Position numbers and translations under genes: made by a program | Assembly: GCA_046760505.1 (NCBI GenBank) | Contig: JBHIEG010000010.1 | Location: forward strand, 163-64,162 | DNA: 64,000 nt | From: Candidatus Hydrothermarchaeota archaeon | GTDB lineage: Archaea > CAYFZR01 | Direction: 5' to 3' | In this document: piece by piece, positions 6,842 to 55,567 of the stretch | How the letters are laid out: the number at the start of each line of letters is the position of its first letter | Position numbering within the stretch: position 1 is the stretch's first letter | The notes under the pieces: generated by a model | What the model was told of the DNA's origin: nothing | Seen by the model: only the letters and a program-made list of their open reading frames with translations | Database searches by the model: none

Positions 6842-6971
6842 CGTCAGACGTAGCGCTCCCTTGTTGAAGATAGAGGGAAATGCTCAATTTAAGGAATAAA
6901 AAAACTTTATATAGAAGTTATTTCTTTAATTAGAATAAGAATAGAGGAAATGTCTGATATATGTCTGACAT
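6842..6971. promoter_or_regulatory. ftsZ promoter region with GTC-W-GAC palindromic boxes
   Basis: CGTCAGACG 6842-6850, TGTCTGATA 6951-6959, ATGTCTGACAT 6961-6971; TATA-like TTTATATA near 6906. Confidence 0.6.
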
Positions 6972-6992
6972 AAAAGAAGGATAGGTGAAAAT

Positions 6993-8054
6993 ATGTCTGT
7001 TCCGATGATTTCTACTCAAACATTTCGTTTACAGGACTCTGAGTTTGACAGCGAACTCAGAGATATAGTTGCCCAATCAAGGACCAATATCATCGTAATC
7101 GGTTTAGGCGGCGCCGGATGTAATACGGTAAACAGGTTAAAAGAAGTGGGTATATCCGGAGCAAAAACGGTTGCCTTAAATACGGATGCCCAATCTTTAT
7201 ACTACACCAGAGCCGATGTCAAGATACTGGCGGGCAGAAACAGCACGAAAGGAAGAGGTGCGGGCGGAGATCCTGAACTGGGATACCAAGCCGCACAGGA
7301 AAACATTGAGGATCTTAAGAGTGTGATGATGGGCGCAGATTTGGTTTTCATAACTCTCGGTCTAGGAGGAGGCACAGGAACAGGTTCAGCACCTTTGGTT
7401 GCAAAGATCTCAAAAAAGATGGGCGCAATAACAATAGGAGTTGTTACCCTTCCCTTTAGAAATGAGGGAATCGTAAGATCGAAGAAGGCAATGGAAGGTC
7501 TAGAAAAACTTCAAAAGGAAGCAGACAATGTAATAGTTATATCAAACGATAAATTATTGAATTTAGCACCTGATTTACCATTAAAAAGCGCCTTTAAGCT
7601 CACAGATGAAGTATTGACTTTGTTCTTAAAAAGCCTGACCGAAATGATACTAAAACCCGGGCTAGTTAACTTAGACTTCGCAGATGTTAGGTCAATACTC
7701 CAAAATGAGAAACTAGCGATGCTGGGAGTTGGCGAAGCCTATGGAAAAGATAGGGTACTTCATGCTATAAAATCTGCCCTTGAGAATCCTCTCCTGGACC
7801 TAGAGGTAAAAAGAGCAAAGAAAGCCCTTATTCACATAACAGCCGGCTCTGAAATAAAAATAGATGAAATAAAAGATGGCATTTCTTTTGTTCAGTCCAT
7901 TGTGGGAGAAGATGCCCATATAATCTGGGGTCTCCAAGTGGATGAAGATTTGAAAGACACGGTAAGGGTTATGATAATTTTAACAGGTATGGACAGAAAA
8001 GTTGAAGTGCACAGAGAATTGAGTGAGGAACTTGGATTAGTTGTTTATGGGTGA
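6993..8054 (+). CDS. ftsZ: Cell division protein FtsZ
   Basis: GLGGAGCN, NTDAQ, GAGGDPELG, GLGGGTGTG, PFRNEG, T7 loop NLDFADV. Confidence 0.95.
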   Translation: MSVPMISTQTFRLQDSEFDSELRDIVAQSRTNIIVIGLGGAGCNTVNRLKEVGISGAKTVALNTDAQSLYYTRADVKILAGRNSTKGRGAGGDPELGYQAAQENIEDLKSVMMGADLVFITLGLGGGTGTGSAPLVAKISKKMGAITIGVVTLPFRNEGIVRSKKAMEGLEKLQKEADNVIVISNDKLLNLAPDLPLKSAFKLTDEVLTLFLKSLTEMILKPGLVNLDFADVRSILQNEKLAMLGVGEAYGKDRVLHAIKSALENPLLDLEVKRAKKALIHITAGSEIKIDEIKDGISFVQSIVGEDAHIIWGLQVDEDLKDTVRVMIILTGMDRKVEVHRELSEELGLVVYG

Positions 8055-8058
8055 TTTT

Positions 8059-8556
8059 ATGAGGAAAAAAGACAAGACAAAAATGAATAGAGTCAAATTT
8101 CTGATTACAGGATCCTATAACTCGGGAAAGACAACCGTGATGGAAAGTTTAATTGGAAACATAGTGAAGGTAGAATATAACGGTACCACGGTTGCTTTAG
8201 ACTATGGGAAACTAAAAGTCAATAGCAAAGAAGTACATTTGTTTGGTACGCCGGGACAGGAAAGATTTAAGTTTATGCGTGACATACTAAGTAAAGGTAT
8301 AGATGGTGGGGTACTGGTAGTTGACAGCACCTTGCCCATAACCAAGCATGACCAAGAAATAATAAGGGAATTTAGATCAGCAAAAATTCCCTTCGTGGTA
8401 TTTGCAAACAAAAGAGATCTACCAGATGCCCTGCCTCTCCAAGAATTTGACGTAGGAGTCCCTGTGATACCCACAATCGCAAAAAGTGGGGAAAATCTGC
8501 ATAAAGGAATTGAAATCCTACTTGAGATGAGAATCAGAGGAGGGTTCCGAAATTAA
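8059..8556 (+). CDS. Small MglA/Ras-like GTPase
   Basis: G1 GSYNSGKT, TTVALDYG, G3 GTPGQERF, G4 NKRD; SD GGTGA before ATG 8059. Confidence 0.85.
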   Translation: MRKKDKTKMNRVKFLITGSYNSGKTTVMESLIGNIVKVEYNGTTVALDYGKLKVNSKEVHLFGTPGQERFKFMRDILSKGIDGGVLVVDSTLPITKHDQEIIREFRSAKIPFVVFANKRDLPDALPLQEFDVGVPVIPTIAKSGENLHKGIEILLEMRIRGGFRN

Positions 8557-8740
8557 TCAGGTTAAATTAACTCACGTTGAGACCAAAGTTCTGGAATTCG
8601 TTAAAAGAGGAGAGTTTAAGAATATAACACAGTGTGCTCAGACCTTAAAGTACCCGGTGGTAACCATTCTTGAAACCTTAAAGTCTCTGGAAAAGAAGGG
8701 CTTAATAGAGAAAGTGGATATAAAGACGGGTAAAAGCTAA
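8552..8740 (+). CDS. Small winged-helix protein, absent from the ORF track (putative ATT start)
   Basis: Manual translation INQVKLTHVETKVLEFVKRGEFKNITQCAQTLKYPVVTILETLKSLEKKGLIEKVDIKTGKS*; GGAGGGT SD just upstream. Confidence 0.6.
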   Translation: MNQVKLTHVETKVLEFVKRGEFKNITQCAQTLKYPVVTILETLKSLEKKGLIEKVDIKTGKS

Positions 8741-8873
8741 TCTTTTTTATCGATCCATAGAGTTCATTTGTTTTTCAGTTCCATTATCAAAACTGGCAAT
8801 ACTTGCCGCATCCAATTATTTATTAGTAATTATTTTATAAGAAAGTAATCTACCTTCTTTAGGGGTAACCGAT

Positions 8874-9677
8874 ATGTTCGAGTTTACGGAAGAAGAGATC
8901 AAAAGGTACAGCAGGCAAATAATACTTAAAGAAGTAGGAGGAAAAGGTCAAAAGAAATTGAGGGAGGCAAAAGTACTTATAATCGGGGCGGGAGGCCTAG
9001 GATCTCCAAGTTCAATATATCTGGCTGCGGCAGGTATCGGAACGATAGGGATTGTAGACTTCGATGTGGTTGATGTAAGCAACCTTCAAAGACAAATACT
9101 CCACGGGACAAAGGACATTGGCAGAGATAAGGTTGATTCTGCAAGGGAGACATTGGAAGACATTAATCCAAATATCACCGTGAATACATATAAAACATTG
9201 CTAAGCCCTGACAACGTTCTTGATTTGATAAAAGAATACGATTTGGTTGTAGATGGCACAGACAACTTTCCTACAAGGTACCTAGTCAACGATGCATGCG
9301 TGATATTGAACAAACCCTTGTTCTACGGAAGTGTTTTCAGATTTGAGGGGCAGGTATCGGTATTCATACCTCGTGAAACCGCTTGTTATAGATGCGTATT
9401 TCCGGAGCGTCCACCAGAAGGTTTTGTTCCAAGTTGCGCTGAAGGTGGCGTGCTCGGAGTTGTCCCGGGAATTATCGGGCTCATGCAGGCAAACGAGGTG
9501 ATAAAGTACATAGTGGGTATCGGCGAACTGCTTAAAAATAGACTGCTAATATTCGATGCGCTCCATGGAGATCTGACGCAAATAAAACTCGAGAGAGATC
9601 CTAAGTGTATTGTATGCGGAGATACTCCGACCATAAAAGACGTAGAGATGTTTGATTACGGACAGGTATGCATATAG
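8874..9677 (+). CDS. moeB: ThiF/MoeB (UbaA-like) adenylyltransferase
   Basis: RYSRQI, GAGGLGSP, DFDVVDVSNLQRQ, CYRC and CIVC Zn sites. Confidence 0.9.
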   Translation: MFEFTEEEIKRYSRQIILKEVGGKGQKKLREAKVLIIGAGGLGSPSSIYLAAAGIGTIGIVDFDVVDVSNLQRQILHGTKDIGRDKVDSARETLEDINPNITVNTYKTLLSPDNVLDLIKEYDLVVDGTDNFPTRYLVNDACVILNKPLFYGSVFRFEGQVSVFIPRETACYRCVFPERPPEGFVPSCAEGGVLGVVPGIIGLMQANEVIKYIVGIGELLKNRLLIFDALHGDLTQIKLERDPKCIVCGDTPTIKDVEMFDYGQVCI

Positions 9678-9685
9678 GTGATAGG

Positions 9686-9922
9686 ATGGAAGTAGATGAA
9701 GTTCTAGATCTCAGGGGAGAAGTCTGTCCATACACATTCGTAAAATCAAAATTAAAGGTAGAGACCATGGAGCCGGGAAAGACGCTAAAAATAATATTGG
9801 ATCACGAACCAGCCACCAAAAATGTTCCAAGAAGTTTAAAGGGAGAAGGTCACGAGATCATTTCCCTAGAGAAAGTGGAAGAGGGTCTATGGCATCTTTA
9901 TGTTAGGGTTGGCGAGGTTTAA
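9686..9922 (+). CDS. tusA: TusA/SirA-family sulfur carrier
   Basis: LDLRGEVCPY motif; SD AGGTGA before ATG 9686. Confidence 0.85.
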   Translation: MEVDEVLDLRGEVCPYTFVKSKLKVETMEPGKTLKIILDHEPATKNVPRSLKGEGHEIISLEKVEEGLWHLYVRVGEV

Positions 9923-9924
9923 GG

Positions 9925-11118
9925 ATGGATGTTGCCCGGCTAAAAAGATACGCTGATATTTCCAGGACCTTAGAGGAGGATTATGTCAACATACAGCCCA
10001 TACAGAGGGGCGGAGTACTTACCAAAGAAGCAAGGAAAATTCTGGTAGATTATGGCGATGGATACAGCATGTGCGACCATTGCCTGGCTGGAAGGTTGGA
10101 TCTGTTAGAGAATCCGCCCGTACAGGAATTTTTGAGAGATGTATCAGAATTTCTTGATATGGATGAGGCTAGACTCACCGCAGGATGCAGACACGCAAAA
10201 TGGGTAGTATTCAATTCTATCTGCAAGAAAGGAAGTACTATTGTAATAGATTCTTTAGCGCATTACACCACATATCTATCTGCAGAAGCCGCAGGGATAA
10301 ACGTGGTTGAGGTTCCTCACTCAGGGTATCCTGAGTACAAGATAAACCTAGATGGATACGTGGATAAGATAGAAGAAGTAAAGAAAGAAACAGGCAAGTA
10401 TCCAGACCTTCTCGTGCTCACCCACGTTGACTACATCTATGGAAATCTATGCGATGCGAGAAAGGTTGGAGATATTGCAGAGGAATACGATATTCCATTT
10501 CTGTTAAACGCTGCCTATACCGCTGGAGTAATGCCTGTTTCTGGCAAAAAATTGAAAGCAGACTTTATTGCCTGCAGCGGTCATAAGAGCTGGGCTGCTG
10601 CCGCGCCCGTAGGAATTCTCGCCACCAACTATGAATACATGGACAAGATCTTCAGGAAATCTGAAATAAAAGGCACCTGGAGCGGTCGTTCGTTTCCTCG
10701 CAAGGAAGTGAGCCTTTTTGGATGTCCGCCAGCGATGGGTGTTACCGCTGCTACGCTAATGGCAAGCTTTCCTGTCGTCGTGCAAAGGATAAATCACTGG
10801 AAGGATGAGATAGAAAAGACCAGATATCTTGTAAACGAACTTGAGAAAATTAAAGATGTTCACCAATTAGGTGTAAAGCCAAAGGAACATCACTTAATTC
10901 ACATGGAAGCTCCCTCTTTTCATAATATCGCTAAAAAGCATCCTAGGAAGGGGTGGTTCCTCTACGACGAATTAAAAGATAGAAAGATAACAGGCATCCA
11001 ATCAGGATTAACGAAGCACTTCAAGCTCTCCGTATATGGCTTAAGCTGGTCTCAGGTAGAATACGTGGCAAATTCCTTCAAAGATCTTGCAGAGAAATAC
11101 GACATACCGGTGGAATGA
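9925..11118 (+). CDS. pscS: O-phosphoseryl-tRNA:Cys-tRNA synthase (SepCysS)
   Basis: NIQPIQRGGVLT, GDGYSMCDHC, PLP lysine SGHKS, third Cys FGCPP, HFKLSVYGL. Confidence 0.93.
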   Translation: MDVARLKRYADISRTLEEDYVNIQPIQRGGVLTKEARKILVDYGDGYSMCDHCLAGRLDLLENPPVQEFLRDVSEFLDMDEARLTAGCRHAKWVVFNSICKKGSTIVIDSLAHYTTYLSAEAAGINVVEVPHSGYPEYKINLDGYVDKIEEVKKETGKYPDLLVLTHVDYIYGNLCDARKVGDIAEEYDIPFLLNAAYTAGVMPVSGKKLKADFIACSGHKSWAAAAPVGILATNYEYMDKIFRKSEIKGTWSGRSFPRKEVSLFGCPPAMGVTAATLMASFPVVVQRINHWKDEIEKTRYLVNELEKIKDVHQLGVKPKEHHLIHMEAPSFHNIAKKHPRKGWFLYDELKDRKITGIQSGLTKHFKLSVYGLSWSQVEYVANSFKDLAEKYDIPVE

Positions 11119-11119
11119 T

Positions 11120-12118
11120 ATGGCAACAAAATGGAAGGAAATAAAAAAGGAGTTTAGAGAGCACTTCAGAACGAAATACGACCCTGTAGGAGTTAAGTTA
11201 CTGAAAGAAAGACCAGACAATGTTATTGAAACAAACGACCCTCTACGCTACTGTCAGTATGTAAAAAAGGCTGCCATGCTTGGAGAAAAATTCATATTAG
11301 ATGATAAAAGTTTCTCCTGTCCAAACTGTTTATTTACCCTCGGATTTAAGGAGCCGGTTTATGGAGATATAGAGCCAAGGATAAAACCTGCTAACACAAA
11401 GGCCATTATGATAGCACCTCTAGGAGATATCGAAGATCCTGACGTAATTCTCACCATATTAACTCCCATACAGGTTATGGAGATATCAAGAGTGATCTAT
11501 AAGGATAAAAACGAATCCATGGTAGCATGCTTCAAGGGTGAGAGAGCCGTATGCGGTGAGGCTACTGCAAAGCCCTATATGGAAAACGGAATTAACGTAA
11601 CCATGCTATGCCAAGGTGCAAGATTATTTGGTCCATATAGCGAAAAAGAGATGGTAATGGGTTTTAAAACAGAAAAATTCCTCGATATGATGCAAAGGAA
11701 ACAGGAAATCGAGGAGATTGGCAAGGGACTCTGTGGATGTATAGTGGATGATGTTCCAAGTGGAGCGATCGATAAACTGGAGAAAATAGGATTTGAAAAA
11801 GGAACTGATTACTTTTTCGGCTACGTAGAAGATAACCTAATAAGAATATATCTTAACAAAGACGAGCACGGAGAATTTAACAAAATAACTTTACATCTAC
11901 CCCTGAAACTTAATGGAGACATTAACCGCGTTCTGGATATTCTCTCATCAGAGTACATGGTCAACCACCAAGTTAGGGACAACTGGCTGGATCTCTCCAT
12001 AGTGCTGAATGCCAAAGATGAAAGCATAAACATGCATACGGGCCAGGGAATAGAAATCATTAAAGACTACGCCAACAAACTGATTGAAATTGGAAACAGG
12101 ATTAAAAGGGTTGTTTAA
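11120..12118 (+). CDS. DUF169-family protein with an extra C-terminal domain
   Basis: PVGVK, RYCQ, SCP, VCGEATA.PY, CQGAR; about 130-aa extension starting GLCGC. Confidence 0.7.
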   Translation: MATKWKEIKKEFREHFRTKYDPVGVKLLKERPDNVIETNDPLRYCQYVKKAAMLGEKFILDDKSFSCPNCLFTLGFKEPVYGDIEPRIKPANTKAIMIAPLGDIEDPDVILTILTPIQVMEISRVIYKDKNESMVACFKGERAVCGEATAKPYMENGINVTMLCQGARLFGPYSEKEMVMGFKTEKFLDMMQRKQEIEEIGKGLCGCIVDDVPSGAIDKLEKIGFEKGTDYFFGYVEDNLIRIYLNKDEHGEFNKITLHLPLKLNGDINRVLDILSSEYMVNHQVRDNWLDLSIVLNAKDESINMHTGQGIEIIKDYANKLIEIGNRIKRVV

Positions 12119-12378
12119 TGATTAAAATAGAGGTGTTTACAACTCCTTCATGTCGTTACTGCCCCTATGCTTTAGATGTGGTCATGCGTGCCTCGAGAGA
12201 ATTTGACAACGTAATCGTGGAAGAAATAGATGTCTCCACCAAAGAGGGAAAAAAAAGAGCAAGAGATCTTAATGTGTTGAACACACCAACCATAGCAATA
12301 AATGGAACCATCTATTTTTCTGGAGTACCCAGTAAAAAAGCGGTTGTTAAGGCCATAAGCGATATATCTGGAAATTGA
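12118..12378 (+). CDS. Thioredoxin/glutaredoxin-like protein
   Basis: IEVFTTPSCRYC, TPTIAING, F.GVP. Confidence 0.85.
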   Translation: MIKIEVFTTPSCRYCPYALDVVMRASREFDNVIVEEIDVSTKEGKKRARDLNVLNTPTIAINGTIYFSGVPSKKAVVKAISDISGN

Positions 12379-12449
12379 TTTTTTAATTCCCGAATTTCGG
12401 AACGCAAACGATAAATACTATAATTCTGACTATTAGAAGATGTGGAAAC

Positions 12450-13178
12450 GTGGAGAAGATAAAAACAGGTATCAGAGGTCTTGACGGTATATTATATGGA
12501 GGTCTTCCAAAGGAGAAAGTGATTCTGGTTACAGGGGGTCCCGGAACCGGGAAGAGTATATTTTGCATGCAATTTTTATACAACGGTGCAAAGGAATACG
12601 GCGAGCCAGGAGTTTTTGTCGCGATAGAGGAGAGACCAAAAGATATCCGGGAAAATATGAAGAGTCTTGGATGGGATATCAAGGAATTAGAAGACAAAAA
12701 ACTTCTGGCAATAATCGATGCTGCTTCCGCAAGACATGGTATACCAAGCGAGGAAAAATACGTTGAATCAAGAGTTTTTGACATCGATACCCTGATACAC
12801 AAGATCGTTACAGTGGTAGAAGAAATCGGTGCAAAAAGGATAGTCATCGATTCGATACCTTCTCTAGGCTTGAGGTTAAGTGAAGATGAATTAAGAGCAG
12901 CGATTTATAGGTTGCAGGGCTTGCTCCTTGAATTAGGATGTACCACTTTTATAGTTTCAGAAATAAAATCTGGAAGCGATGAAATCAGCAGATATGGATT
13001 CGAAGAGTTCATTTCCCATGGCGTCATTATCCTAGAACTTGTCGAACACTCAGGAGACATGATAAGAAGGCTTTGGGTAAGGAAGATGCGGGGAACACCC
13101 CATAAGATGAAGAAGTATCCTTTCGAAATTACTTCCGAAGGAATCGTAATCTATCCAACCGAAGAGTTGGGAACTTAG
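12450..13178 (+). CDS. KaiC/RAD55-family ATPase
   Basis: GGPGTGKS, IEERP, RIVIDS, SRYGFEEF, RKMRGT. Confidence 0.9.
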   Translation: MEKIKTGIRGLDGILYGGLPKEKVILVTGGPGTGKSIFCMQFLYNGAKEYGEPGVFVAIEERPKDIRENMKSLGWDIKELEDKKLLAIIDAASARHGIPSEEKYVESRVFDIDTLIHKIVTVVEEIGAKRIVIDSIPSLGLRLSEDELRAAIYRLQGLLLELGCTTFIVSEIKSGSDEISRYGFEEFISHGVIILELVEHSGDMIRRLWVRKMRGTPHKMKKYPFEITSEGIVIYPTEELGT

Positions 13179-13182
13179 TCTT

Positions 13183-13926
13183 ATGAAGCGGATGAAAACC
13201 GGAATTGACGAACTGGACAAAATGCTCGAGGGTGGTTATCCTGTTCCATCTATTGTACTGATCCTCGGCGACAGCGGTAGTGGAAAAAGCATTTTTGCCC
13301 AGCAATTCCTATGGAAAGGTATAAAAGAGGGAGAAAATAACCTCTACATTTCTATAGATCACTCACCATCGGAAATAAGGGAATCTATGTCCAAATTTGG
13401 TTGGAATTATAACAAAAAAGATTTAAACATTTTAGATTGCTATTCTGAGAGATTAGGCTTTGCGCATGGAGGAAATAAGTACGTAGAAAATCCCTACAAC
13501 CTCAACAATTTGTACAGGGTGATATCAGAATCCATAGAAAACAGCGAAAATCAGAGGAATACCAGACTGGTTTTAGATTCAGCCTCCACTTTAATTATGC
13601 GCACCGATTTCAATACTATTTACCGGTTCTTTCAGAAGTTTGCGGGATATTTAATGTCCAAGGATGCAGTCGGATTGATTACATTGCACAAAGGAATGCA
13701 CAACAGTTACATCGAGAACTCTATGAGACAAATCTGCAACGGAGTTTTACATTTAATGAGGGAATGGGAAGAATATGCAATGACCCTTAGCCTTTTACTA
13801 AAAAAGACCTGGAAAAGCAGGCAAATAAGACGCTATATCTGGATAGATAGAATGCATGCAACGAAACATACCACAGAGGTATATTCATTTAGCATCGATG
13901 ACCACGGAATCAAGATCATAAGATAA
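13183..13926 (+). CDS. KaiC/RAD55-family ATPase (catalytic EE replaced)
   Basis: KTGIDELD, GDSGSGKS, SIDHSP, RLVLDS. Confidence 0.85.
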   Translation: MKRMKTGIDELDKMLEGGYPVPSIVLILGDSGSGKSIFAQQFLWKGIKEGENNLYISIDHSPSEIRESMSKFGWNYNKKDLNILDCYSERLGFAHGGNKYVENPYNLNNLYRVISESIENSENQRNTRLVLDSASTLIMRTDFNTIYRFFQKFAGYLMSKDAVGLITLHKGMHNSYIENSMRQICNGVLHLMREWEEYAMTLSLLLKKTWKSRQIRRYIWIDRMHATKHTTEVYSFSIDDHGIKIIR

Positions 13927-14106
13927 TTTTTTTCAGATATTTTTACTCATTTTCATCAAACTTACATAGTTTAGCATAATTGACTCACTTTTTATCACAT
14001 TTGTTTTACTTCTTTTAATAATCTAAAAAGAGGCATTTTTGAAATGTTTTCCACTATTTTTGTATAGATAAAATATAATTTGTTATAATGTCAAAATATA
14101 CATAGT

Positions 14107-14502: not shown

Positions 14503-14506
14503 AACA

Positions 14507-15454: not shown

Positions 15455-15539
15455 TTAATCATAACTCGCAAACCTAATAATTTTTTATAATTTTCCCATC
15501 CAAAAAGATTTTATCAACTGATTAGGAGAAGAATTTTTT

Positions 15540-16070: not shown

Positions 16071-16146
<76 letters not shown>

Positions 16147-42968: not shown

Positions 42969-42969
42969 A

Positions 42970-45472: not shown

Positions 45473-45473
45473 A

Positions 45474-46226: not shown

Positions 46227-48829
46227 TGATTGAGTCTGTACAAGGCTTCGTTTTTCCAAATGAAATTGAGGTGCAGTGGAGTATACTTATCGCTTTGTAC
46301 CCTTATATAACCGGTCTGGTGGCTGGAGCATTTATTGTTTCATCGATTTATCATGTTTTTGGAAGAAAAGAGGTTAAACCCGTTGCTAAACTGGCTGTAC
46401 TAACCGCATACGCCTTTCTTTTAATTTGCGTTCAGCCCTTGCTCTTTCATCTCACACAGCCTTTAAGGGCTCCAGAAATATTCTTGACCCCAAATCCTAA
46501 CTCGGCCATGGCTGCGTTTGGCTATGTCTACCTGTCTTATCTCATAATTTTGACCCTAGAGATTTGGTTCATATTCAGAGAGGATATCGTGAGATTTGCA
46601 AAATCGAGCAGGGGGATAAAAAAACTGTTCTACTTTGTTCTGGCTTTAGGTATCACTGATATATCGAAGGAAGCCCTAGAGACCGATCATAAAATCACCA
46701 CCGTGCTCGCGGCGATAGGAATTCCATCTGCCTGCTTACTTCACGGATATGCTGGCTTCATATTTGGATCTATTAAAGCCAATCCTTGGTGGTCCACACC
46801 TCTAATGCCGATCATATTTTTACTCTCCGCTATAGTCTCAGGTATTGCGATGTTGATCCTAATCTACGTTATCGTATCAAAGATAAGGAGAACCACCATA
46901 GATAGAACCTGCATGAAATCGCTGGCAACTTACCTCTGGTACTTCTTGGTAATAGATCTAACCTTCGAGTCATTGGAAGTTCTATCAAAGATGTATGAAT
47001 CTGCTGAAGAATGGGGAATAATTTCACAACTGATCTCAAAGAAGATTGCATTCACCTTCATAGGAGTCCAAATGATCATGGGGGAGGTAATCCCCATAAT
47101 CGTGATCGGTTCTCTCCTACTCTTTAAGTTTGGGGAGAGAGTAAGGAATGCGGGCTTTTTCCTCTCCTCGCTGCTAGTTGTTATCGGAGTCTTTGCGATG
47201 CGATGGAACGTTGTAATCGGAGGTCAACTTTTCTCAAAAAGTTTAAGGGGCTTTACCACATATGCTCCAGAGTTCCTGAGCAGGGAAGGGATACTGCCCG
47301 CGATCTTTCTAATGACCTTGCCATTCGTGATACTTGCAGTATCGTTAATCATCCTGCCCCCCTGGGAAAGGGAAGAAAGGGAGAAAAAAGAATTAAAGGA
47401 AATATTCGGTGATAGGGTGAGTTTTGATGAGAATGAACTGATCCTTTACTCTCATGACGTAGGAACGCTCCCTGATGTAGTTCCGCTATTCATGCTGGAT
47501 ACCTTACCAGATGCTGTTGTACTTCCGGAAAACAAAGAAGAGTTAGTAAAACTTGTAAATCTTGCAAACGAGTTCAGAATTCCATTGATACCAAGAGGGT
47601 CAGCGACTGGTGGATACGGTGGAGCGCTTCCTGTTTATGGGGGCATAGTTGTAAACTTTTCTAAGATGGACAGGATAATAGAGATAAATAAAGAAGAAAA
47701 GACTGCTACAATAGAGCCAGGAGTAATTTGGGACCGGTTAGAAAAAGAACTGAATAAACAAGGCTTGCAACTAAAGCACTACCCATCGAGCGCTCCATCT
47801 GCTACGGTAGCAGGCTGGATAGCCCAAGGGGGGACTGGAATAGGCAGTTTAACCTATGGAAACGCTTCCACGATAGTAAAGGAGGCAGAATTGGTTACAC
47901 CGGACGGTAAGGTAGAGACGTTCAAGGGTAAGAACTTAGATCTCGTCTGCGAATGTGAAGGAATAACAGGATTCATAACGAAATTAAAAATTGAAGTAAA
48001 GGATTATGAAGAGATAATCCCAGTAACCGTATTGTTTAAAGATGCATCTTCCTTAGAATCAGCAATAAATCAGGTTGTTAGTTATGCAAAGCCCTATACC
48101 ATAGCATTCGGAACTCCTGGATACATAAAACTTAAACAGGAGGCAACAGGCCACAGACTCCTGCCGGAGGATAAATACTACGCGATATTTGCATACTACG
48201 AGTCTCAGTATGAGAAAGTAAAGGAAAAATTTGCTGAGATAATCCATTCTAATTCTGGAGAGATTGCAAGCGCTGAAGTCTCCAAAAAAGAATGGGAAGA
48301 GAGATTTTACCCTTTGAGAATAAAGAGGCTTGGTCCAAGCGTAATACCGAGTGAGGCATTGATTCCTAATGCGAGACTGAAAGATGTTTTGGAAGAAGTA
48401 GAAAAAGAGACAAAAGGAATGTACATCGGGGCAGAAGGACAGTTGGCAAGTGAAAAAGAATCTGCTTTACTGGTGTTTTTCTTGGAAGACGAACGTTCTT
48501 TCTTAAGATTTACTTTCGGATGGAACAACGCATTCAAAATAGTAGATATCGCGAGAAAATTCGGTGGAAGAGTGTATTCAACAGGAATATGGTTTTCAGG
48601 AGAATCAGAGAGTTACTTCGGAAAAGAAAGACTTGAAAAAATAAGGAAGTTCAAGAAAGAAAGAGATCCGAACGACATCATGAACCCTGGAAAGATATTT
48701 CCGCCTGAGATAAAGGCTTTTCCACTCATGCCCATCTCCAAGGGTATAGAACTCTCGAAACCTTTCATGTCGATAGGAAGCAAAATATTCCGATATCAAA
48801 GAGCCGAGGTAAGTTACACTGATCAATGA
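46226..48829 (+). CDS. NrfD/PsrC-type membrane subunit fused to a GlcD/D-lactate dehydrogenase-like FAD oxidoreductase
   Basis: aa 1-~378 multi-TM (YPYITGLVAG, LHGYAG, RWNVVIGGQ); aa ~385-830 PDAVV.P, PRG.ATG.YGG, PSSAPSATVAG, EGITG, DP..IMNPGK. Confidence 0.85.
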   Translation: MIESVQGFVFPNEIEVQWSILIALYPYITGLVAGAFIVSSIYHVFGRKEVKPVAKLAVLTAYAFLLICVQPLLFHLTQPLRAPEIFLTPNPNSAMAAFGYVYLSYLIILTLEIWFIFREDIVRFAKSSRGIKKLFYFVLALGITDISKEALETDHKITTVLAAIGIPSACLLHGYAGFIFGSIKANPWWSTPLMPIIFLLSAIVSGIAMLILIYVIVSKIRRTTIDRTCMKSLATYLWYFLVIDLTFESLEVLSKMYESAEEWGIISQLISKKIAFTFIGVQMIMGEVIPIIVIGSLLLFKFGERVRNAGFFLSSLLVVIGVFAMRWNVVIGGQLFSKSLRGFTTYAPEFLSREGILPAIFLMTLPFVILAVSLIILPPWEREEREKKELKEIFGDRVSFDENELILYSHDVGTLPDVVPLFMLDTLPDAVVLPENKEELVKLVNLANEFRIPLIPRGSATGGYGGALPVYGGIVVNFSKMDRIIEINKEEKTATIEPGVIWDRLEKELNKQGLQLKHYPSSAPSATVAGWIAQGGTGIGSLTYGNASTIVKEAELVTPDGKVETFKGKNLDLVCECEGITGFITKLKIEVKDYEEIIPVTVLFKDASSLESAINQVVSYAKPYTIAFGTPGYIKLKQEATGHRLLPEDKYYAIFAYYESQYEKVKEKFAEIIHSNSGEIASAEVSKKEWEERFYPLRIKRLGPSVIPSEALIPNARLKDVLEEVEKETKGMYIGAEGQLASEKESALLVFFLEDERSFLRFTFGWNNAFKIVDIARKFGGRVYSTGIWFSGESESYFGKERLEKIRKFKKERDPNDIMNPGKIFPPEIKAFPLMPISKGIELSKPFMSIGSKIFRYQRAEVSYTDQ

Positions 48830-49248
48830 AAAATGGAAAGGGTATTGTTATGGAAAAGGAAGTTTTAGATGTGGAAAAGTCAAAAGAAAAAATGAGAAAA
48901 TTGCTTAAAGATCCTGAAAAAGCAGATGAATTTATCAATCTACTAACTGAACACAGAAGAAAGAGATTCAAAGATTTTGAAGAATCCCTCCAAAGGGATC
49001 CTGTCCTCTTCGACGATTTCACCAAAGACCCTATCGAAACATTGGCCAGAGCGGGCTTGATTTGTGAGAACGATGAAGTAATCATAAAGTACCCCGGAGC
49101 AGTTGCACCTCGAATCGCGATGAAGACGATGAAATTTCCGGTTCCGGTCAAAATTAAGGTGAAGTGTCAGATATGCTGGAGAAAGATCTATCCTTATCCT
49201 TGCCATTATACCATCGAAATCCAGTGGCCAGCAATGGAACAAGATTAA
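48826..49248 (+). CDS. Hypothetical protein
   Basis: ATGA overlap with the preceding gene; DP..F..F..DP...L..AG motif; Cys/aromatic C-terminus. Confidence 0.55.
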   Translation: MKNGKGIVMEKEVLDVEKSKEKMRKLLKDPEKADEFINLLTEHRRKRFKDFEESLQRDPVLFDDFTKDPIETLARAGLICENDEVIIKYPGAVAPRIAMKTMKFPVPVKIKVKCQICWRKIYPYPCHYTIEIQWPAMEQD

Positions 49249-49751
49249 TCCATTCTTCTATTATCCTCTCCAGAACCAAAATCTCATTTTCTCAAGTACG
49301 ATTATCGCTGCAGCAATGCAAAATAAACCTATCAACAATGTAGTGATAACGCAGTCCATACGATCATCTGATTATACTATACAATTTGTTTTTAATATTT
49401 TCTTTGTTTATAATATTTTCTTAAGATTAATCATTAAAAATTATATTAGTAATAATTACTCAAATTATATTTAAGAAACTTTACAGGTAATCTAAAAATG
49501 CAGGAGTTAGGGCTAATCTAGGAAATCTAGAAGAGCATTACTATTATTATTTCCTATTTTGGCTCTTCTTTTTTCTTTTTCTTCTTGAAGATGCTAGACA
49601 ATTTTTCTTTGAGTTTCTCTATATCCATGATCCATCACTCTCGCGGCACTAATTTATATTTCTCCTTACTTTTATATATTTTGTTAGAATCCTATTTTCC
49701 ACCAACAATTATCATACAGCAAATTATCTTATGCAACAAAAATTGTCGTTT

Positions 49752-50882
49752 TTATTCCGTCCCTTCCAGCAATATTTCGGTTATGTATTTTACAGAAATG
49801 TCTTTTCCTCTTTTTTTAGCGGCATGTCCAAGATTAAAAGAGCAGAATGAACACGATGTGATCAATTCATCCGCAATTTCCTCTGCCTCATCCAGTCTAT
49901 CAACTGCCATATCCATAGAAAACTCTCGATAAACAGATCTCACGCCGGAATCTGCTCCACAGCAGAAGGATTTCTCCATACTTCTATGCATCTCTATCAA
50001 GTTAAAACTCTTTAAAAGCTCCCTCGGCTCTTTATATATGCCATGAACTCTACCAAGATGGCATGGATCGTGGTAAGCTATCTTTTTGTCAATTTTCTGG
50101 ATCTTTAGCTTCGATAAATTTTCGTAAAGCACTTCCAGAATATGCTTAACCTCCAAGTCCATTTCTCCAAGAATTTCAGGATAGTAAACTTTGAAAGCCT
50201 TGTAACATCCGGCGCAAATCACTATGATTCTTTTAATACCATATGATTTGAATCTTTCTACATTTTTGAAGTAAAATTCTTCTGTTAAGTCTATTTTACC
50301 AGAGTCAATAAAATAACTCCCGCAACAACCTTCATCTTCTAAAATAAGGGGTTTAATTCCGATTTTTTCTAATAACAGCATGGAAGATCTTGCAGCGTCC
50401 TTGGTTATGTAAGATGGTATACATCCTGCGAAAAATAAGGTATCCGAGTCTTCTTTTATCCTATCTTCTTTTATCCTGTAATCTCCTTCTATTTTATAAT
50501 CTGGAGGCAACCAGTCAAGTCTCTTTGATGGATCTCCCATCACTGAATTGCCTTTTTCCAGTATCCAGTCAATAATTTTCTTATGACCTTCTAGTGGAGC
50601 AAACCCCATCTTTACAAGTTCTATTCTCGCCTCGCCCACAATTTTTGATGTAGGCACCTCTTTTTCGCATACATGCTCGCAGGCGCCGCATCTAGGACAC
50701 TTGTACAGACTTTCGATTATCTCCTCTGTTATAGTTTCTCCATTTAAAATGCTTTCAGAAGCTTTTATCCTGTACATAGGGCTGAGAGTAAGATTCTTAG
50801 AGACAATATATGTGGGACAAGAGTTTAAACATACTCTACACTCATCACAAGACGTTATCTCCTCAATATAATCCTCTAACAT
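49752..50882 (-). CDS. GlcF/HdrD-like Fe-S protein with two CCG domains
   Basis: Two CxxCxxCxxxC, FFAGC, EGCCG, YHDPCHLGR, FCCGA. Confidence 0.9.
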   Translation of the reverse strand: MLEDYIEEITSCDECRVCLNSCPTYIVSKNLTLSPMYRIKASESILNGETITEEIIESLYKCPRCGACEHVCEKEVPTSKIVGEARIELVKMGFAPLEGHKKIIDWILEKGNSVMGDPSKRLDWLPPDYKIEGDYRIKEDRIKEDSDTLFFAGCIPSYITKDAARSSMLLLEKIGIKPLILEDEGCCGSYFIDSGKIDLTEEFYFKNVERFKSYGIKRIIVICAGCYKAFKVYYPEILGEMDLEVKHILEVLYENLSKLKIQKIDKKIAYHDPCHLGRVHGIYKEPRELLKSFNLIEMHRSMEKSFCCGADSGVRSVYREFSMDMAVDRLDEAEEIADELITSCSFCSFNLGHAAKKRGKDISVKYITEILLEGTE

Positions 50883-51034
50883 TTTTACACCAAATACATG
50901 GTGCTCTCCATTGTTTTTGAATCTTTTTGTCCTATTTCTCCCGGACATGTGCGGGACAAAATAAATAAAGAAGATGAAAATATGGGTGCATCCCGGTGCA
51001 TAAATTAAGGTGGATTACTCGAGGAGGTATAAGA

Positions 51035-51325
51035 TTGATTATAGCTGAGTTGAGCGTAGTGCCTCTAGGAACAACTTCTCCTAGCGTAAGTAAATACGTA
51101 AAAACTGCGCTAGAAGAGCTGAAAAGATCAGGAGTTAAATTTGAAGTGGGTGCGATGTCAACAACCATTGAGACAGAAAACTTGGAAACCTTGTTCTCTG
51201 TAGTAAAAATGGCTCATGAAGCAGTTTTCACTGCTGGCGCAAAAAGAGTCGTAACAACCTTAAAAATAGACGATCGCAGAGACAAAGATGCTTCTATAAT
51301 CTCCAAATTAGAGGCTCTTAAATGA
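51035..51325 (+). CDS. MTH1187/thiamine-binding protein family
   Basis: ELSVVPLG...SVS.YV, M.T.IE, RV...LKIDDRRD. Confidence 0.9.
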   Translation: MIIAELSVVPLGTTSPSVSKYVKTALEELKRSGVKFEVGAMSTTIETENLETLFSVVKMAHEAVFTAGAKRVVTTLKIDDRRDKDASIISKLEALK

Positions 51326-52005
51326 GCAAACTATTTGATGGAGTCGCTGAAAGGTACGATCTCTGGTATGAGAGCCCCATAGGTAGTTATGCACTTGAAC
51401 TAGAGAAAGAGATGATTTTAAGATTTTCTGAGCCGAAAAGAGGAGAAAAAATACTGGATATCGGTTGTGGAACGGGAGTTTTCGCTTCTTCCTTTGCAAA
51501 ATTGGGATTAGATGTAACATGTCTTGATATCTCAGAAAAAATGTTGAATGTCGCTAAAACTAAAAGGATAAAAGGGATAAGATTCATTTTAGGCGATGTA
51601 AACAGACTTCCATTCGAAGATGAAACCTTTGACATTGTCATTGCGGTAACCACATTAGAATTCTTGGAAGATCCTGGAAAAGGAATCCGAGAAATGAGGC
51701 GCGTTCTCAAAAAGGATGGAAGAATAGTTTTAGGCATACTAAACAAATGGAGCCTATGGACACTAGAAAGAAAGATCAGGTCTTTTTTCGAAGAATCGGT
51801 ATTTAAATCTGCCAGATTTTACAGTGTTTACGAGGTGAAATCGTTTTTTGGAGACATGAAATTCAATTGGGGCTCAACATTATTCATGCCTCCAAATACT
51901 CCGAATTTTATTCTAAAGCATACGAAAAACTTGGAAGAAATTTTATCCAAATCTATTTTAAAGATCTTCGGCGGCTTTATAGTTATAAAAGCCAGTTTTA
52001 GTTAA
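51322..52005 (+). CDS. Class I SAM-dependent methyltransferase
   Basis: YD.WY, ILDIGCGTG, LPF.D..FD. Confidence 0.88.
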   Translation: MSKLFDGVAERYDLWYESPIGSYALELEKEMILRFSEPKRGEKILDIGCGTGVFASSFAKLGLDVTCLDISEKMLNVAKTKRIKGIRFILGDVNRLPFEDETFDIVIAVTTLEFLEDPGKGIREMRRVLKKDGRIVLGILNKWSLWTLERKIRSFFEESVFKSARFYSVYEVKSFFGDMKFNWGSTLFMPPNTPNFILKHTKNLEEILSKSILKIFGGFIVIKASFS

Positions 52006-52080
52006 AATGGATTTAATACTCTTTCAATTTCTCGTCCCTTCTGATTTTTAGATTCTACCTCCAACAATATTTATATATTT

Positions 52081-52094
52081 TGAATATATATTCA
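52081..52094. promoter_or_regulatory. Perfect 14-bp palindrome, probable operator of the DUF134 gene
   Basis: TGAATATATATTCA between a TATA-like TTATATA and ATG 52100. Confidence 0.55.
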
Positions 52095-52099
52095 TAACT

Positions 52100-52570
52100 A
52101 TGGTACGTCCTAAGAAGTGTAGAGAGATATGGCTGAAGCCAGAGCGTATGTACTACAAGCCTAGGGGAATTCCTGCTAGGGAACTAGAAGAAATCAACCT
52201 AACCTTTGACGAACTCGAGGCAATGAGGTTGAGATACCTTAAGAAACTGCAACAAGAAGATGCTGCCAAAGAAATGAACATCTCGCAACCAACATTTCAC
52301 AGAACTTTAGAGAGGGCATGGACCAAAATAACAGATGCTCTGGTAAACGGAAAGGCAATAAATATTGATGGAGGTAATTATTTGATTAGAAAAGGAGAAA
52401 GAAGATTTTTATGCTTTGAATGTCAGCACGAGTGGGAGGAAGTGTTTGGAACTGGAAGGCCTTTTAAGTGCCCAAAGTGTAGTAGCTCGAGTATCCATAG
52501 GCATCCTGAAGACAGAGGATATGCAAGAAGACGAGGTAGAGGTCCGAGAGGGCCTAGATTTGACCGGTAA
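52100..52570 (+). CDS. DUF134 HTH protein with C-terminal Zn ribbon
   Basis: RP.K.R, ELEAMRL, Q..AA..M.ISQPTF.R, CFEC...CPKC. Confidence 0.9.
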   Translation: MVRPKKCREIWLKPERMYYKPRGIPARELEEINLTFDELEAMRLRYLKKLQQEDAAKEMNISQPTFHRTLERAWTKITDALVNGKAINIDGGNYLIRKGERRFLCFECQHEWEEVFGTGRPFKCPKCSSSSIHRHPEDRGYARRRGRGPRGPRFDR

Positions 52571-52619
52571 GGATCAAAGTTACATAAAAAACTTTAAGTT
52601 TTCACGGCTTAACCTTGTT

Positions 52620-53077
52620 ATGAAAGAAAAGAAGAGTTTGAAGAGGCTTATAATGAGTTTTTAATCTCAAAATGGTTTTTAGATCCCTTAAATGGACTGA
52701 AATCAGTTGTTGACAGGTTTTTTAAAGATTATAAAGCAAGAGAAGGAATCGTTAGAGAATACACAAGAGATAATTACAGATACGCTGTTTTCTTTTCTCT
52801 GATAGATGATGTTGGTAATGATTTACCTGCTCATCTAGAATTCGCCTCAGATTATAGCGGAGAGTACGTCATAATTACTCCTACTGAAAGAACGCCTGCT
52901 CCCTTTATAAAATTCTTCAAAGAACGCTCTGATAGACTCAAGGCTGCAAACATAAAGATATGGGTCGTTGACGTCGATAGAAAATCTATCGATCCTTTCA
53001 TAGGTTATCCTAAAGATTTTAGACTTCTCAGGGGTTTCAAAAATCCAAAGCTAGCAAGCATTATAGGTTCCCTTTAG
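52620..53077 (+). pseudogene. Frameshifted ~150-codon hypothetical gene (not in the ORF track)
   Basis: Open frame 52613-53077 (ERKEEFEEAYNEFL...DPFIGYPKDFRLLRGFKNPKLASIIGSL*) has no in-frame ATG/GTG/TTG near its start; ATG 52620 is one base out of frame. Confidence 0.55.
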
Positions 53078-53170
53078 AGATGAACGTTAAGCCAAAAAAT
53101 TGATTTACTTGTTAATGAGACGCTCATCCGCTACGTCAACTTTTTTAACATTAGAAAATTTAAGAAATCC

Positions 53171-53452
53171 ATGGACGAAGAATTGCTGAAGATAAAAGCC
53201 ATGATCACCAGGTGGTATGAGACCTATAGAAAAATGGAGCCTAGCGAAACGACCATCTATATGTTTATAGACGCAATACAAAGAGTTGTTGAAATATATC
53301 TTCCTGATTTGTATCGGACAAAGTCCATAAGCCCAGAAGATTATTCAGAATTGATGTCTTACTGCGAAGATTTATTGGAAAGACTTAAGAAAGAGTTTGG
53401 TCTTCAAGACACTACATTGATATGGGATCCAAGGGGCGTTGCACCGATATAA
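53171..53452 (+). CDS. Hypothetical protein
   Basis: 93-aa helical ORF; no family recognised. Confidence 0.6.
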   Translation: MDEELLKIKAMITRWYETYRKMEPSETTIYMFIDAIQRVVEIYLPDLYRTKSISPEDYSELMSYCEDLLERLKKEFGLQDTTLIWDPRGVAPI

Positions 53453-53518
53453 CCTAGAATAACTAGATTTCCATGTTATTAGCTTTTCATATGAATCCTT
53501 AAAACTTTCAAAAATATA

Positions 53519-54373
53519 TTACAGAATGCCCTCTCTCACAAATTCGTTTATTATTGGTATGTAGTCTTTCCTGAGTTTATAAACTTCTCCTTCGGTGTTA
53601 TCTTTCTCGACAAAGTTTTTAGATATAAGTGCCTCCAAATCATACTTCACATCGCTCTTGCTCAACAAAGCCTTTTCACTGATTTTATTCATATCCAGAG
53701 ACTCGTATTCAAAGAGTGCGCGTATCATCCTTTTTTGGGTGTCAGAAAGTGTAATAAAAGTCTTAAATCTTTCTTTTGCGGAAAGTTCTCCTTCCCTGTA
53801 GCTCTTGTAAATTTCCGCATCTTTTTTCCCTAGTTCGTTTTTTAGATCTTCTATAATCTTGTCGTATCTTTTTTCCAGTTGTTCGAGTTTATTTTTATAT
53901 TCGTTCTCTATCTTCTCTACTTCCTTCATTATTGATACATTAATTTGATCCTTAATCTCAGCGAGTTCGTTTTCCAGTGTCAGTTTTTCGGTCTTCAGTT
54001 CTTGATTTAAAATTTCTGCTTCATTCAATTTATTTTTTAATAATGAAACTTCTTCTTCTAACTTTTTATTCAGTTCTTTAAGATCTAATAACTCGTCTCT
54101 AACTTTAATGTTTTCTATGAGTTTTTCAACTTTATCTTCGTATGAAGATAAAATTTTTTCTATTTTTTCCTCGTAAACAGAGATTTTCTCCTTCAATTTT
54201 AACTCTTCTTTCTCAAAATCCTCCAATTTATTCTGTAGTTCAACCTTTTCTTTTTGTAAGTCTCCTATAGTTTTGTATACCTGATCTAATTCTTCTTGTA
54301 AATCTTTTTTTCTTTTTTCAAGTTCTTCTATCTTTTCATTCAGTTTTTCAACCTCATTTTTATTACCGAACAT
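53519..54373 (-). CDS. Long coiled-coil protein with C-terminal winged helix
   Basis: About 200 aa of E/K/L heptads, then LSDTQKRMIRAL...ISEK..LSKSDV...LEALISKNFV......YKL. Confidence 0.75.
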   Translation of the reverse strand: MFGNKNEVEKLNEKIEELEKRKKDLQEELDQVYKTIGDLQKEKVELQNKLEDFEKEELKLKEKISVYEEKIEKILSSYEDKVEKLIENIKVRDELLDLKELNKKLEEEVSLLKNKLNEAEILNQELKTEKLTLENELAEIKDQINVSIMKEVEKIENEYKNKLEQLEKRYDKIIEDLKNELGKKDAEIYKSYREGELSAKERFKTFITLSDTQKRMIRALFEYESLDMNKISEKALLSKSDVKYDLEALISKNFVEKDNTEGEVYKLRKDYIPIINEFVREGIL

Positions 54374-54377
54374 AAAA

Positions 54378-55463
54378 TCACGTGTAAAAAGATTCTAGCT
54401 CTTCTCCATCTCTTAGTAGATCATACAAACTTTTTTCTGCTTCTATTACAGCTGCTTTTAAGTCTGCCGCGGCATTTTTTGCATACATCATAATTTCATC
54501 TATCCTTGGGGACCTGTAAACGCCGCTCAATAGGGCGAGAATCTCAACTTGATCTGCGTTTGGCTTCGGGTAGATTCCTCTAAATACCTGATGACCCTTT
54601 ATCGTTTCCTTGAGAAACTCTAGTCCCTCAAATATCTCACTTGCTGCGAGACACTTCATGGGTCCGCTTATAGCAACTATGGCCTTCAGTGCTGTCTTAA
54701 CGTCTATATCCAGATATAAACCTTCATCAGGCTTTATTGCTTTCTCTATCAGAGGAGTTATTGAGTTTACGCTTTTTACCGGTTCATTTACATAGCCTAT
54801 TGTTGCTATTCCTCCAAAACCGCTTAAAGTTGCTTTTACATCGTTTCCGTCTATTATCTGTTCTCCCGACATCGTCGTAAATCTGACCAACGTGTTGATC
54901 CTGCTCACTATGGCCCTGTTTATGTTTTCATAGGCGGTTGAGATATCTTCATCAGCCGATCTTAACCTCTCATTATCTATCAGAATTAATGCATCCACTG
55001 CCTTGTTCATTCCTGACAAGCCTATGGCTGAATTTATTATGGCTTGGTCTCCCTCAATCGCTAGTGGAAGAACGCCAATTCCCACAACCAAACTTTCTGG
55101 AAATTCTTCTTTTATTTTTTGGGCTATGATTGGGGCTCCTCCAGATCCTGTGCCCCCTCCCAACCCTGCTGATACAAAGTATATGTCAATATCTTGGGAT
55201 CCGATTTCTTTAATCTTTTTGTAGACATCCTGGATATCCGAGTTCGCCGCATCTCTACCTTTCAGCGGATTAGCACCGACGCCTCTACCTCTCGTTATTG
55301 ATTTACCTATCAACACCCTATTTTCCGAGGGAATGAAATTTAGCCATGAAAGATCTTGTCTGGCCGTATTAATTGCCAGAGCGCTGTAACCGCTGCTGCT
55401 GAACACGTCGGCAATTTTTGTACCGCAATGACCGACCCCGACCACTACTATTTTCAATACCAA
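54378..55463 (-). CDS. Tubulin/FtsZ-superfamily protein, CetZ/FtsZ3-like
   Basis: GVGHCGTKIAD, NTARQDL, GRGVGAN, AGLGGGTGSG, DNE, T7 loop IIDGNDV (not FtsZ NLDFAD). Confidence 0.85.
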   Translation of the reverse strand: MVLKIVVVGVGHCGTKIADVFSSSGYSALAINTARQDLSWLNFIPSENRVLIGKSITRGRGVGANPLKGRDAANSDIQDVYKKIKEIGSQDIDIYFVSAGLGGGTGSGGAPIIAQKIKEEFPESLVVGIGVLPLAIEGDQAIINSAIGLSGMNKAVDALILIDNERLRSADEDISTAYENINRAIVSRINTLVRFTTMSGEQIIDGNDVKATLSGFGGIATIGYVNEPVKSVNSITPLIEKAIKPDEGLYLDIDVKTALKAIVAISGPMKCLAASEIFEGLEFLKETIKGHQVFRGIYPKPNADQVEILALLSGVYRSPRIDEIMMYAKNAAADLKAAVIEAEKSLYDLLRDGEELESFYT

Positions 55464-55504
55464 TACCTCCAGTCTGGTAATTTCTTTTTTTTTGTATAAA
55501 TTTC

Positions 55505-55567
55505 TTTGTCAGACAAAATTAGCCCAAATATCACAAAATTTATCAAAAACCATAAATATGTCTGACA
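55505..55567. promoter_or_regulatory. Divergent promoter with two TGTCWGACA boxes
   Basis: TTTGTCAGACAAA 55505-55517; TGTCTGACA 55559-55567. Confidence 0.6.

Follow-up and report, generated by a model that had tools for sequence, protein, structure and literature searches.

What reads a short palindrome that stands before two tubulin-family genes of one archaeal genome, and which other genes might the same reader control? The 64-kb stretch of Candidatus Hydrothermarchaeota DNA analysed here (the window; contig C10 of a 2.17-Mb assembly with 38% G+C, which we call the source genome, G000) contains the nine-mer TGTCWGACA three times, at 6962, 55507 and 55559, and all three copies lie in the promoter of an ftsZ paralogue and in the promoters that a CetZ-like gene and a DUF515 gene direct away from each other. 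The possibility raised by an earlier inspection of the letters alone (the sequence-only reading), that one palindrome-binding factor serves the ftsZ, CetZ-like and DUF515 genes, appears plausible. We propose, with a probability of about 0.72, that the palindromes are operator boxes of a CdrS-family ribbon-helix-helix (RHH) regulator, the most likely binder being a 53-aa CdrS encoded on contig C2 of the same genome. In what follows, a box is either the nine-mer or its seven-mer core GTCWGAC, and the main partner for comparison is the sister genome G001; within the genome set searched, these two genomes are alone in their phylum.

Distribution and conservation of the box

Dinucleotide-preserving shuffles of the window (n = 100) contained a mean of 0.24 nine-mers, and none of the 100 reached three. 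Genome-wide, the nine-mer occurs 12 times, roughly as base composition predicts, and its placement is far from random. The intergenic fraction, defined as the 9.6% of the genome outside any open reading frame (ORF) of 80 aa or more, holds 8 nine-mers where 0.6-1.3 are expected, and the ORFs hold 4 where 6-15 are expected; the corresponding numbers for GTCWGAC are 27 against 6-12 and 43 against 63-158. Among 12 7-bp palindromes of equal composition, GTCWGAC alone is enriched intergenically (density ratio 5.4; others, 0.2-1.6), and by a hand count of the site list, 20 of the 27 intergenic seven-mers precede an ORF start of the right orientation by at most 120 nt. In the genome-wide scan that the sequence-only reading had named as a check, the nine-mer total is close to background, and intergenic enrichment and depletion within ORFs are clear. 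Its remark that no other perfect intergenic copies exist is correct for the window and incorrect for the genome. The motif coordinates that it listed (6842, 6951, 6961, 55505, 55559 and 6070) are all exact in the window sequence, and the divergent spacer between the CetZ-like and DUF515 genes does measure 126 bp when the longest ORFs are used (55464-55589).

The sister genome contains 15 nine-mers, compared with 3 matches to a reversed control pattern. At the positions orthologous to 11 of these 15, in regions with an overall identity of 71-85%, the source genome keeps at least the seven-mer; in two of these kept boxes, only the central A/T is flipped and both arms are intact. Two of the remaining nine-mers are not conserved in the source genome and two could not be aligned. 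In the ftsZ promoter, the TATA box and the operator have been kept while the sequence farther upstream has diverged between the two genomes. The CetZ/DUF515 spacer is about 90% identical throughout, and the conservation of its boxes consequently says little.

It could be argued that the motif is a by-product of chance, of composition or of a duplicated promoter cassette, with no regulator behind it, given that the genome-wide total is near the compositional expectation and that a stretch of 21 bases adjoining the box is identical at C2:58647 and C4:59524, which means that some promoters may be copies. We consider this hardly credible, in view of the enrichment between ORFs and depletion within them, the lack of enrichment of palindromes of the same composition, the persistence of boxes amid diverged flanks in the sister genome, and the recurrence of boxes in other phyla with strict 11-nt phasing. 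The motif observation is thus confirmed as real and more than chance. A reading of the palindrome as an RNA hairpin was ruled out, since a 1-nt loop cannot form.

Anatomy of the operator

The unit is the 7-bp palindrome GTCWGAC, mostly flanked by T...A, and strong sites consist of two units with a 4-nt spacer, giving an operator of 18 bp overall with a period of 11 bp. The genome contains 18 tandem operators with at least 12 of the 14 specified positions, of which 14 are intergenic. A composite module, in which GTCWGAC is followed by 4 nt, GTCTTAA and then a TATA box, recurs at C2:58647, C4:59524, C5:76647 and C8:37922 and, in the window, at 6832-6849; the genes behind its copies are xerA, a LolA-like gene, a 159-aa gene, a 376-aa gene and the 123-aa gene of the window.

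A helix-turn-helix dimer spans two major grooves. A 7-bp palindrome repeated every 11 bp would suit an RHH dimer better than such a dimer, for which half-sites 4 bp apart in an 11-bp repeat would be a poor fit. This bears on the possibility that a helix-turn-helix factor binds the boxes, namely the 284-aa protein encoded behind the CetZ-like gene, a 317-aa DUF7343/MarR-like protein encoded on C68, or a 152-aa protein encoded divergently from cdrS. The 284-aa protein gives weak winged-helix matches, and the gene of the C68 protein, in which a DUF7343/MarR_2 domain is recognized, is preceded by a box at a distance of 326 nt; however, none of these candidates is linked to the box in other lineages, as cdrS is, and we regard binding by any of them as decidedly improbable. 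The proposal that winged helix-turn-helix proteins are encoded downstream of each tubulin-family gene, from which the sequence-only reading had drawn its first set of candidate binders, was not supported: the gene after ftsZ encodes a small GTPase and no regulator, and the winged-helix matches of the protein after the CetZ-like gene all fall below curated cut-offs (TrmB E 0.002). Its other candidate, a CdrS-like RHH protein encoded elsewhere, is the one that the following evidence favours.

A candidate regulator on contig C2

A Pfam RHH_1 search of the source genome found a 53-aa ORF on C2 (41 bits), located 11 nt upstream of the gene for a 369-aa FtsZ (TIGR00065, 426 bits). A small RHH gene directly upstream of, and co-oriented with, an ftsZ2-type gene is the cdrS-ftsZ2 arrangement, and the best NCBIfam family of the C2 protein is CdrS (NF058555, E 3.7e-17). 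The same RHH-ftsZ pair is present in the genomes G025, G007, G030, G011, G034 and G018. Among proteins of solved structure, the sequences nearest to C2 CdrS are those of ParD-type antitoxins and NikR (E 0.0015-0.04); a word-indexed protein search with CdrS returned 2 matches. The 152-aa ORF divergent from cdrS on C2 (L069:1891-2349, plus strand) has no Pfam match and a C-terminus that looks like a winged helix by eye, and the ORF is preceded, at a distance of about 105 nt, by a variant box, GTCCGAC.

The box and cdrS in other archaea

One tie between the box and cdrS comes from methanogens. The N-terminal peptide shared by the CdrS proteins of G000 and G025 (a two-sequence alignment) was used to fetch 73 methanogen-order loci, mostly from Methanomicrobiales, Methanosarcinales and Methanocellales and covering at least three orders. 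Within 200 nt upstream of cdrS, TGTCWGACA is found in 60 of the 73 loci and GTCWGAC in 68, and the remaining 201,185 nt of these loci contain no nine-mer and 6 seven-mers. Successive boxes are spaced by 11 nt (109 cases), 22 nt (65), 33 nt (32) or 44 nt (8), with few other spacings; the array ATGTCAGACAATTGTCAGACAATTGTCAGACAAATGTCGGACA in L189 is an example. In all five whole genomes of that methanogen set, one or two of the 2-17 nine-mers lie directly upstream of cdrS.

G025, which belongs to another phylum by taxonomic grouping, encodes a CdrS that is 62% identical to that of the source genome and has the same beta-strand. The nine-mer occurs 13 times in its genome and the control pattern once; the nine-mer sites include a full tandem operator and the composite GTCTTAAAC, and boxes lie upstream of its FtsZ1 gene and of the orthologue of a PF04008 gene that is also a target in the source genome. 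A formylmethanofuran:tetrahydromethanopterin (H4MPT) formyltransferase (FTR) is encoded by both G000 (C75) and G025 (L118), with a box 35 nt upstream in G025.

A haloarchaeal set of five genomes, each with a CdrS above the NF058555 cut-off, provides the link to binding data. In all five, a pair of GTCNGAC-like units separated by 4 nt immediately precedes the TATA box of the ftsZ gene that is not linked to cdrS (ftsZ1), the same tandem boxes precede dacZ in three of the five, and the perfect tandem pattern was counted 17 times, compared with no match to the control. In the available part of the published account, chromatin immunoprecipitation sequencing (ChIP-seq) of Haloferax volcanii CdrS located a symmetric motif at -50 (ftsZ1) and -47 (dacZ), counted from the 10th nucleotide of the motif (PMC8406309); these positions fit an 18-bp operator just upstream of the TATA box. 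In the source genome, likewise, dacZ is preceded by a box at 36 nt, and an FtsZ1-type gene has an 18-bp tandem operator, in line with a symmetric motif of about 18-20 nt. Ten ORFs flanking the 17 perfect haloarchaeal tandem sites were scanned for the proteasome genes known as ChIP targets; panA, psmB and cdc48d were not among them, and they comprise GatB, Orc1/Cdc6, one weak acetyltransferase match and 7 ORFs without a family.

The arms of the box also appear to follow the protein. In G018 (L095), the TATA box of cdrS is immediately followed by GTAATAC-TTAG-GTATTAC, at about 80-60 nt before the gene, and the CdrS strand reads KLITTHIP; in Thermococcales-like genomes, the strand is MRIISVQLP, compared with ERVTIRLP in the source genome. 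When cdrS-promoter arms are set against beta-strands (n = 4 strand types), GTC/GAC arms accompany R-T-R or K-S-R, and GTA/TAC arms accompany the strand of G018. This suggests that the strand residues of the RHH protein and the arms of the box co-vary.

Points that weigh against CdrS as the reader

Several observations weigh against the assignment of the boxes to CdrS. The C2 protein scores 62.1 bits with NF058555, below the cut-off of 100, although methanogen CdrS homologues score 46-70 bits, which indicates that the model is halophile-specific. The 73 methanogen loci are mutually related, and their counts overstate independence. The box described here may be equated with the ChIP motif of H. 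volcanii CdrS by position, length and symmetry, and these are the properties on which the equation rests. The cdrS promoters of haloarchaea carry a different box (GTAAGAC, 3-4 nt, GTCTTAC), which may be a site of CdrL, another haloarchaeal regulator; these inverted boxes are conserved (L192-L197), both upstream and downstream of the TATA box. In class II methanogens, a box was found at none of 4 ftsZ1 and none of 6 dacZ upstream regions, most of these genes being apparently inside operons, so that ftsZ1 and dacZ are not universal targets. The CetZ-like orthologues of G030, G007, G034, G011, G002 and G026 have no box upstream, several of them being inside operons, and Thermococcales-like genomes show no enrichment of the nine-mer. 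Finally, the cdrS promoter of the source genome has no perfect box, and its single variant, GTCCGAC, precedes the start codon by about 158 nt, so that autoregulation is not evident here, and two more small RHH proteins of the source genome (C1:115826 and C4:2696) share the R-x-T-x-R beta-strand and could read the same box.

The last two points would also be expected if the boxes were read by one of these paralogues (C1:115826-115936 or C4:2696-2812) in place of C2 CdrS. Both share 45-46% identity with CdrS, and their DNA-reading strands have the R-x-T-x-R pattern. On the other hand, the box tracks the cdrS that precedes ftsZ across the 73 loci and tracks CdrS ChIP targets in haloarchaea, and no tie between the paralogues and division genes was found; we therefore judge a paralogous reader to be unlikely and retain C2 CdrS as the preferred binder.

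The two loci of the window

The coordinates of the features are collected in Table 1. The ftsZ operator is situated between the predicted TATA box, which precedes it by about 39 nt, and the start codon, which follows it by 22 nt; relative to the predicted transcription start, it occupies about +18 to +35. The four sequencing runs that cover 6300-8600 are DNA from one study of this uncultured organism, and a search for RNA runs returned none. The ftsZ and small-GTPase genes probably share an operon. A tubulin-family gene is thereby paired with a small-GTPase gene in one apparent operon (6993-8556). The encoded FtsZ is 47-52% identical to FtsZ proteins whose genes do not adjoin cdrS and 40-45% identical to cdrS-linked FtsZ, and another FtsZ of the source genome, encoded on C4, is a closer match to the FtsZ1 of G025.

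The motif CGTCAGACG at 6842 (6842-6850), which had been counted among the ftsZ promoter sites, has to be reassigned: it is half of a composite operator facing the minus-strand TATA box of the 123-aa gene, and belongs to the promoter of that gene and not to ftsZ. The site is gone in the sister genome, where the 123-aa gene is replaced.

Farther upstream, at the place of the variant box with a central G, the sister genome has a perfect TGTCTGACA. Just upstream of this variant box is the gene for a 464-aa protein (4626-6020) with GvpD P-loop, KaiC-like ATPase and GvpD basic-region domains. Downstream of it lies a non-coding block (6080-6262) that is conserved with the sister genome and has a TATA-like stretch, a terminal T-run, a fold z-score of -2.7 and a 9-bp inverted repeat, GAGGGTGTC...GACACCCTC. 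The block has no Rfam match and no ORF of 45 aa or more, and an Rfam scan of 5900-7000 gave only three matches at chance level (E ~0.8). By analogy with one Haloferax CdrS target, which is an RNA of unknown function, the block may be a small RNA under control of the box.

In the other locus, the CetZ-like gene has its minus-strand TATA box, TTTATACA, at 55493-55500, and the box at 55507..55515 precedes it by 7 nt. The two boxes of the divergent spacer are 52 nt apart, with the identical 52-nt spacing in the sister genome; as this is about five helical turns, they may act together. The CetZ-like protein shows both domains by which a CetZ is recognized, with 107.5 bits for PF00091 (Tubulin) and 75.9 bits for PF21011 (CetZ_C; cut-off 21.6), each above its cut-off, and a search of genome contigs with this protein found matches in the sister genome and one 48% relative only.

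Table 1. Operators, promoter elements and genes at the two window loci, followed by box-marked genes elsewhere in the source genome (contig:position of the box site).
Feature	Location	Strand	Remarks
Variant box CGTCGGACA	6070..6078	.	Central G
123-aa gene	6411..6782	-	Directed away from ftsZ; no Pfam or NCBIfam match; replaced in sister genome
Composite operator, minus-strand GTCTGAC-GAAT-GTCTTAA	6832..6849	-	Just upstream of minus-strand TATA box; includes CGTCAGACG
Predicted TATA box TTTATATA of ftsZ promoter	6906..6913	+	From sequence; kept in sister genome; role inferred
Motif TGTCTGATA in ftsZ promoter	6951-6959		Read from sequence
Tandem operator GTCTGAT-ATAT-GTCTGAC	6953..6970	.	13/14 specified positions match; kept in sister genome
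Motif ATGTCTGACAT in ftsZ promoter	6961-6971		Read from sequence
FtsZ paralogue, 353 aa, FtsZ1 type	6993..8054	+	Pfam Tubulin and FtsZ_C; TIGR00065 371.7 bits, above cut-off
Small Ras/Arf-like GTPase, 171 aa	8041..8556	+	TIGR00231 small_GTP; overlaps ftsZ end by 14 nt
284-aa protein	53519..54373	-	Directly downstream of CetZ-like gene; coiled-coil-like; weak C-terminal winged-helix signal
CetZ-like tubulin-family gene, 359 aa	54378..55457	-	Likely start is second TTG, 7 nt after GGAGGT
Box TGTCAGACA	55507..55515	.	Inside motif TTTGTCAGACAAA (55505-55517); kept in sister genome
Box TGTCTGACA	55559..55567	.	Abuts TATA-like ATAAATAT; ~44 nt upstream of likely DUF515 start codon; kept in sister genome
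DUF515 protein	55611..56930	+	Pfam DUF515 117.6 bits; ATG 55611 follows AGGAG; longest ORF from 55590
DacZ (diadenylate cyclase, c-di-AMP synthesis)	C8:66015		Box 36 nt upstream; best NCBIfam model DacZ; Pfam DAC and DacZ_P above cut-off
XerA	C5:76647		Above NCBIfam cut-off
Archaeal MinD, 555 aa	C11:33253		Above NCBIfam cut-off
Archaeal RecJ	C5:79593		Above NCBIfam cut-off; divergent from metallo-beta-lactamase gene

Predicted regulon of the source genome

About 22 intergenic regions of the source genome carry a box, marking about 20 promoters. Besides the genes of Table 1, box-flanking genes encode a histone-deacetylase-family protein, a PF04008 kinase-like protein, an arginase-family protein, a glutamine amidotransferase and an S-layer-like fragment, and many box-flanking ORFs have no family. 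The genome has six tubulin-family genes, of which only the two in the window carry boxes: none was found at the C4 FtsZ gene (the closest to FtsZ1 of G025), at the ftsZ behind cdrS or at the paralogues on C9 and C1. The statement that both tubulin-superfamily genes share the operator is accordingly true of the window but does not extend to the other four of the six, and the set is not a cytoskeleton regulon, the name that the sequence-only reading had suggested, since the box is found in so many other intergenic regions.

Discussion

If CdrS reads the boxes, one RHH dimer would occupy each 7-bp unit, with its two-stranded beta-sheet inserted into the major groove, and dimers 11 bp apart would be aligned along one side of the helix, with cooperative binding. 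The bacterial RHH repressors MetJ, Arc and omega bind tandem short units, one dimer each, cooperatively along one DNA face; their operators differ from the box described here in unit length, spacing and biological role. Boxes just upstream of the B recognition element (BRE) and TATA box, about 40-50 nt before the predicted start, may recruit basal factors and activate transcription, and we propose this activating position for the CetZ-like gene, dacZ, xerA and the 123-aa gene. The ftsZ of the window, probably the DUF515 gene and the cdrS arrays of methanogens would form a separate position class. The proposed activating position agrees with Haloferax, where CdrS is reported to bind the ftsZ1 promoter at about -50 and where repression of cdrS lowers ftsZ1 (PMC8406309).

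The system resembles the CdrS of H. volcanii and Halobacterium salinarum, as described in the available parts of two studies (PMC8406309, PMC7439475), in several respects: a small RHH gene immediately precedes ftsZ2, a symmetric operator about 18-20 nt long is located close to promoters, and the targets comprise dacZ, an FtsZ1-type gene and many genes of unknown function, possibly with a small RNA among them. Unlike in haloarchaea, the ftsZ boxes of the window are located downstream of the TATA box and not at -50, and binding here is predicted from sequence; furthermore, the phylum of the source genome consists of two genomes in the searched set and its protein falls below the cut-off of the halophile model. 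The CetZ-like, DUF515, XerA, MinD and RecJ targets are absent from the published table of 18 H. volcanii sites (PMC8406309). CdrL of haloarchaea, in the same available text, is an RHH regulator that binds the cdrS-ftsZ2 promoter, and differs in being described as unique to halophiles, with one reproducible site (PMC7439475).

A further relative is aCcr1 of Sulfolobales, a small RHH cell-cycle regulator whose aCcr1-box matches the operator described here in architecture and was likened by its authors to the core of the CdrS motif, according to the part of that study available (PMC9976878). It differs in its GTA/TAC-like arms, compared with GTC/GAC here, in its division gene, which is cdvA and not ftsZ, and in its lineage, Thermoproteota; the 9-bp aCcr1-box as printed there has T-A-rich arms, and the box here, with GTC/GAC, does not match it. 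The cdrS promoter of G018 represents an intermediate case between the two. None of the titles, abstracts and passages covered by our literature search concerned a CdrS box outside haloarchaea, although the supplementary tables of PMC8406309 and PMC9976878 may list motif instances.

We tentatively extend these comparisons to a broader proposal, whose chances we put slightly short of even: GTCWGAC with an 11-bp phase may be an ancient CdrS operator, common to haloarchaea, class II methanogens, a 'Methanobacteriota' lineage represented by a metagenome-assembled genome (MAG) and the two-genome phylum studied here, and the regulator may have been rewired in this phylum from control mainly of its own cdrS-ftsZ2 operon to a cell-cycle programme. 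Such a programme would include the FtsZ paralogue and MinD (division), the CetZ-like protein (shape), the DUF515 protein (envelope or pilus), XerA (chromosome dimer resolution), RecJ (replication) and DacZ (cyclic di-AMP signalling).

To our knowledge, no cell-division transcription factor other than CdrS has been studied in archaea that use FtsZ, and the work on CdrS covers two halophiles only. What is new here is the lineage, the explicit rule for the box and the target set of CetZ-like, DUF515, XerA, MinD and RecJ genes, together with the contrast between lineages in which the box guards cdrS itself and the source genome, in which it marks about 20 promoters. The variation in box arms and RHH beta-strands would offer a convenient system for analyzing the evolution of RHH specificity. 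If the box is the CdrS operator, the published ChIP motif would gain a sequence rule, namely two GTCNGAC units 4 nt apart, and CdrS regulons would become predictable from sequence in lineages that cannot be grown. The CetZ-type shape gene, MinD, XerA, RecJ and DacZ would then be candidate members of one division-linked circuit.

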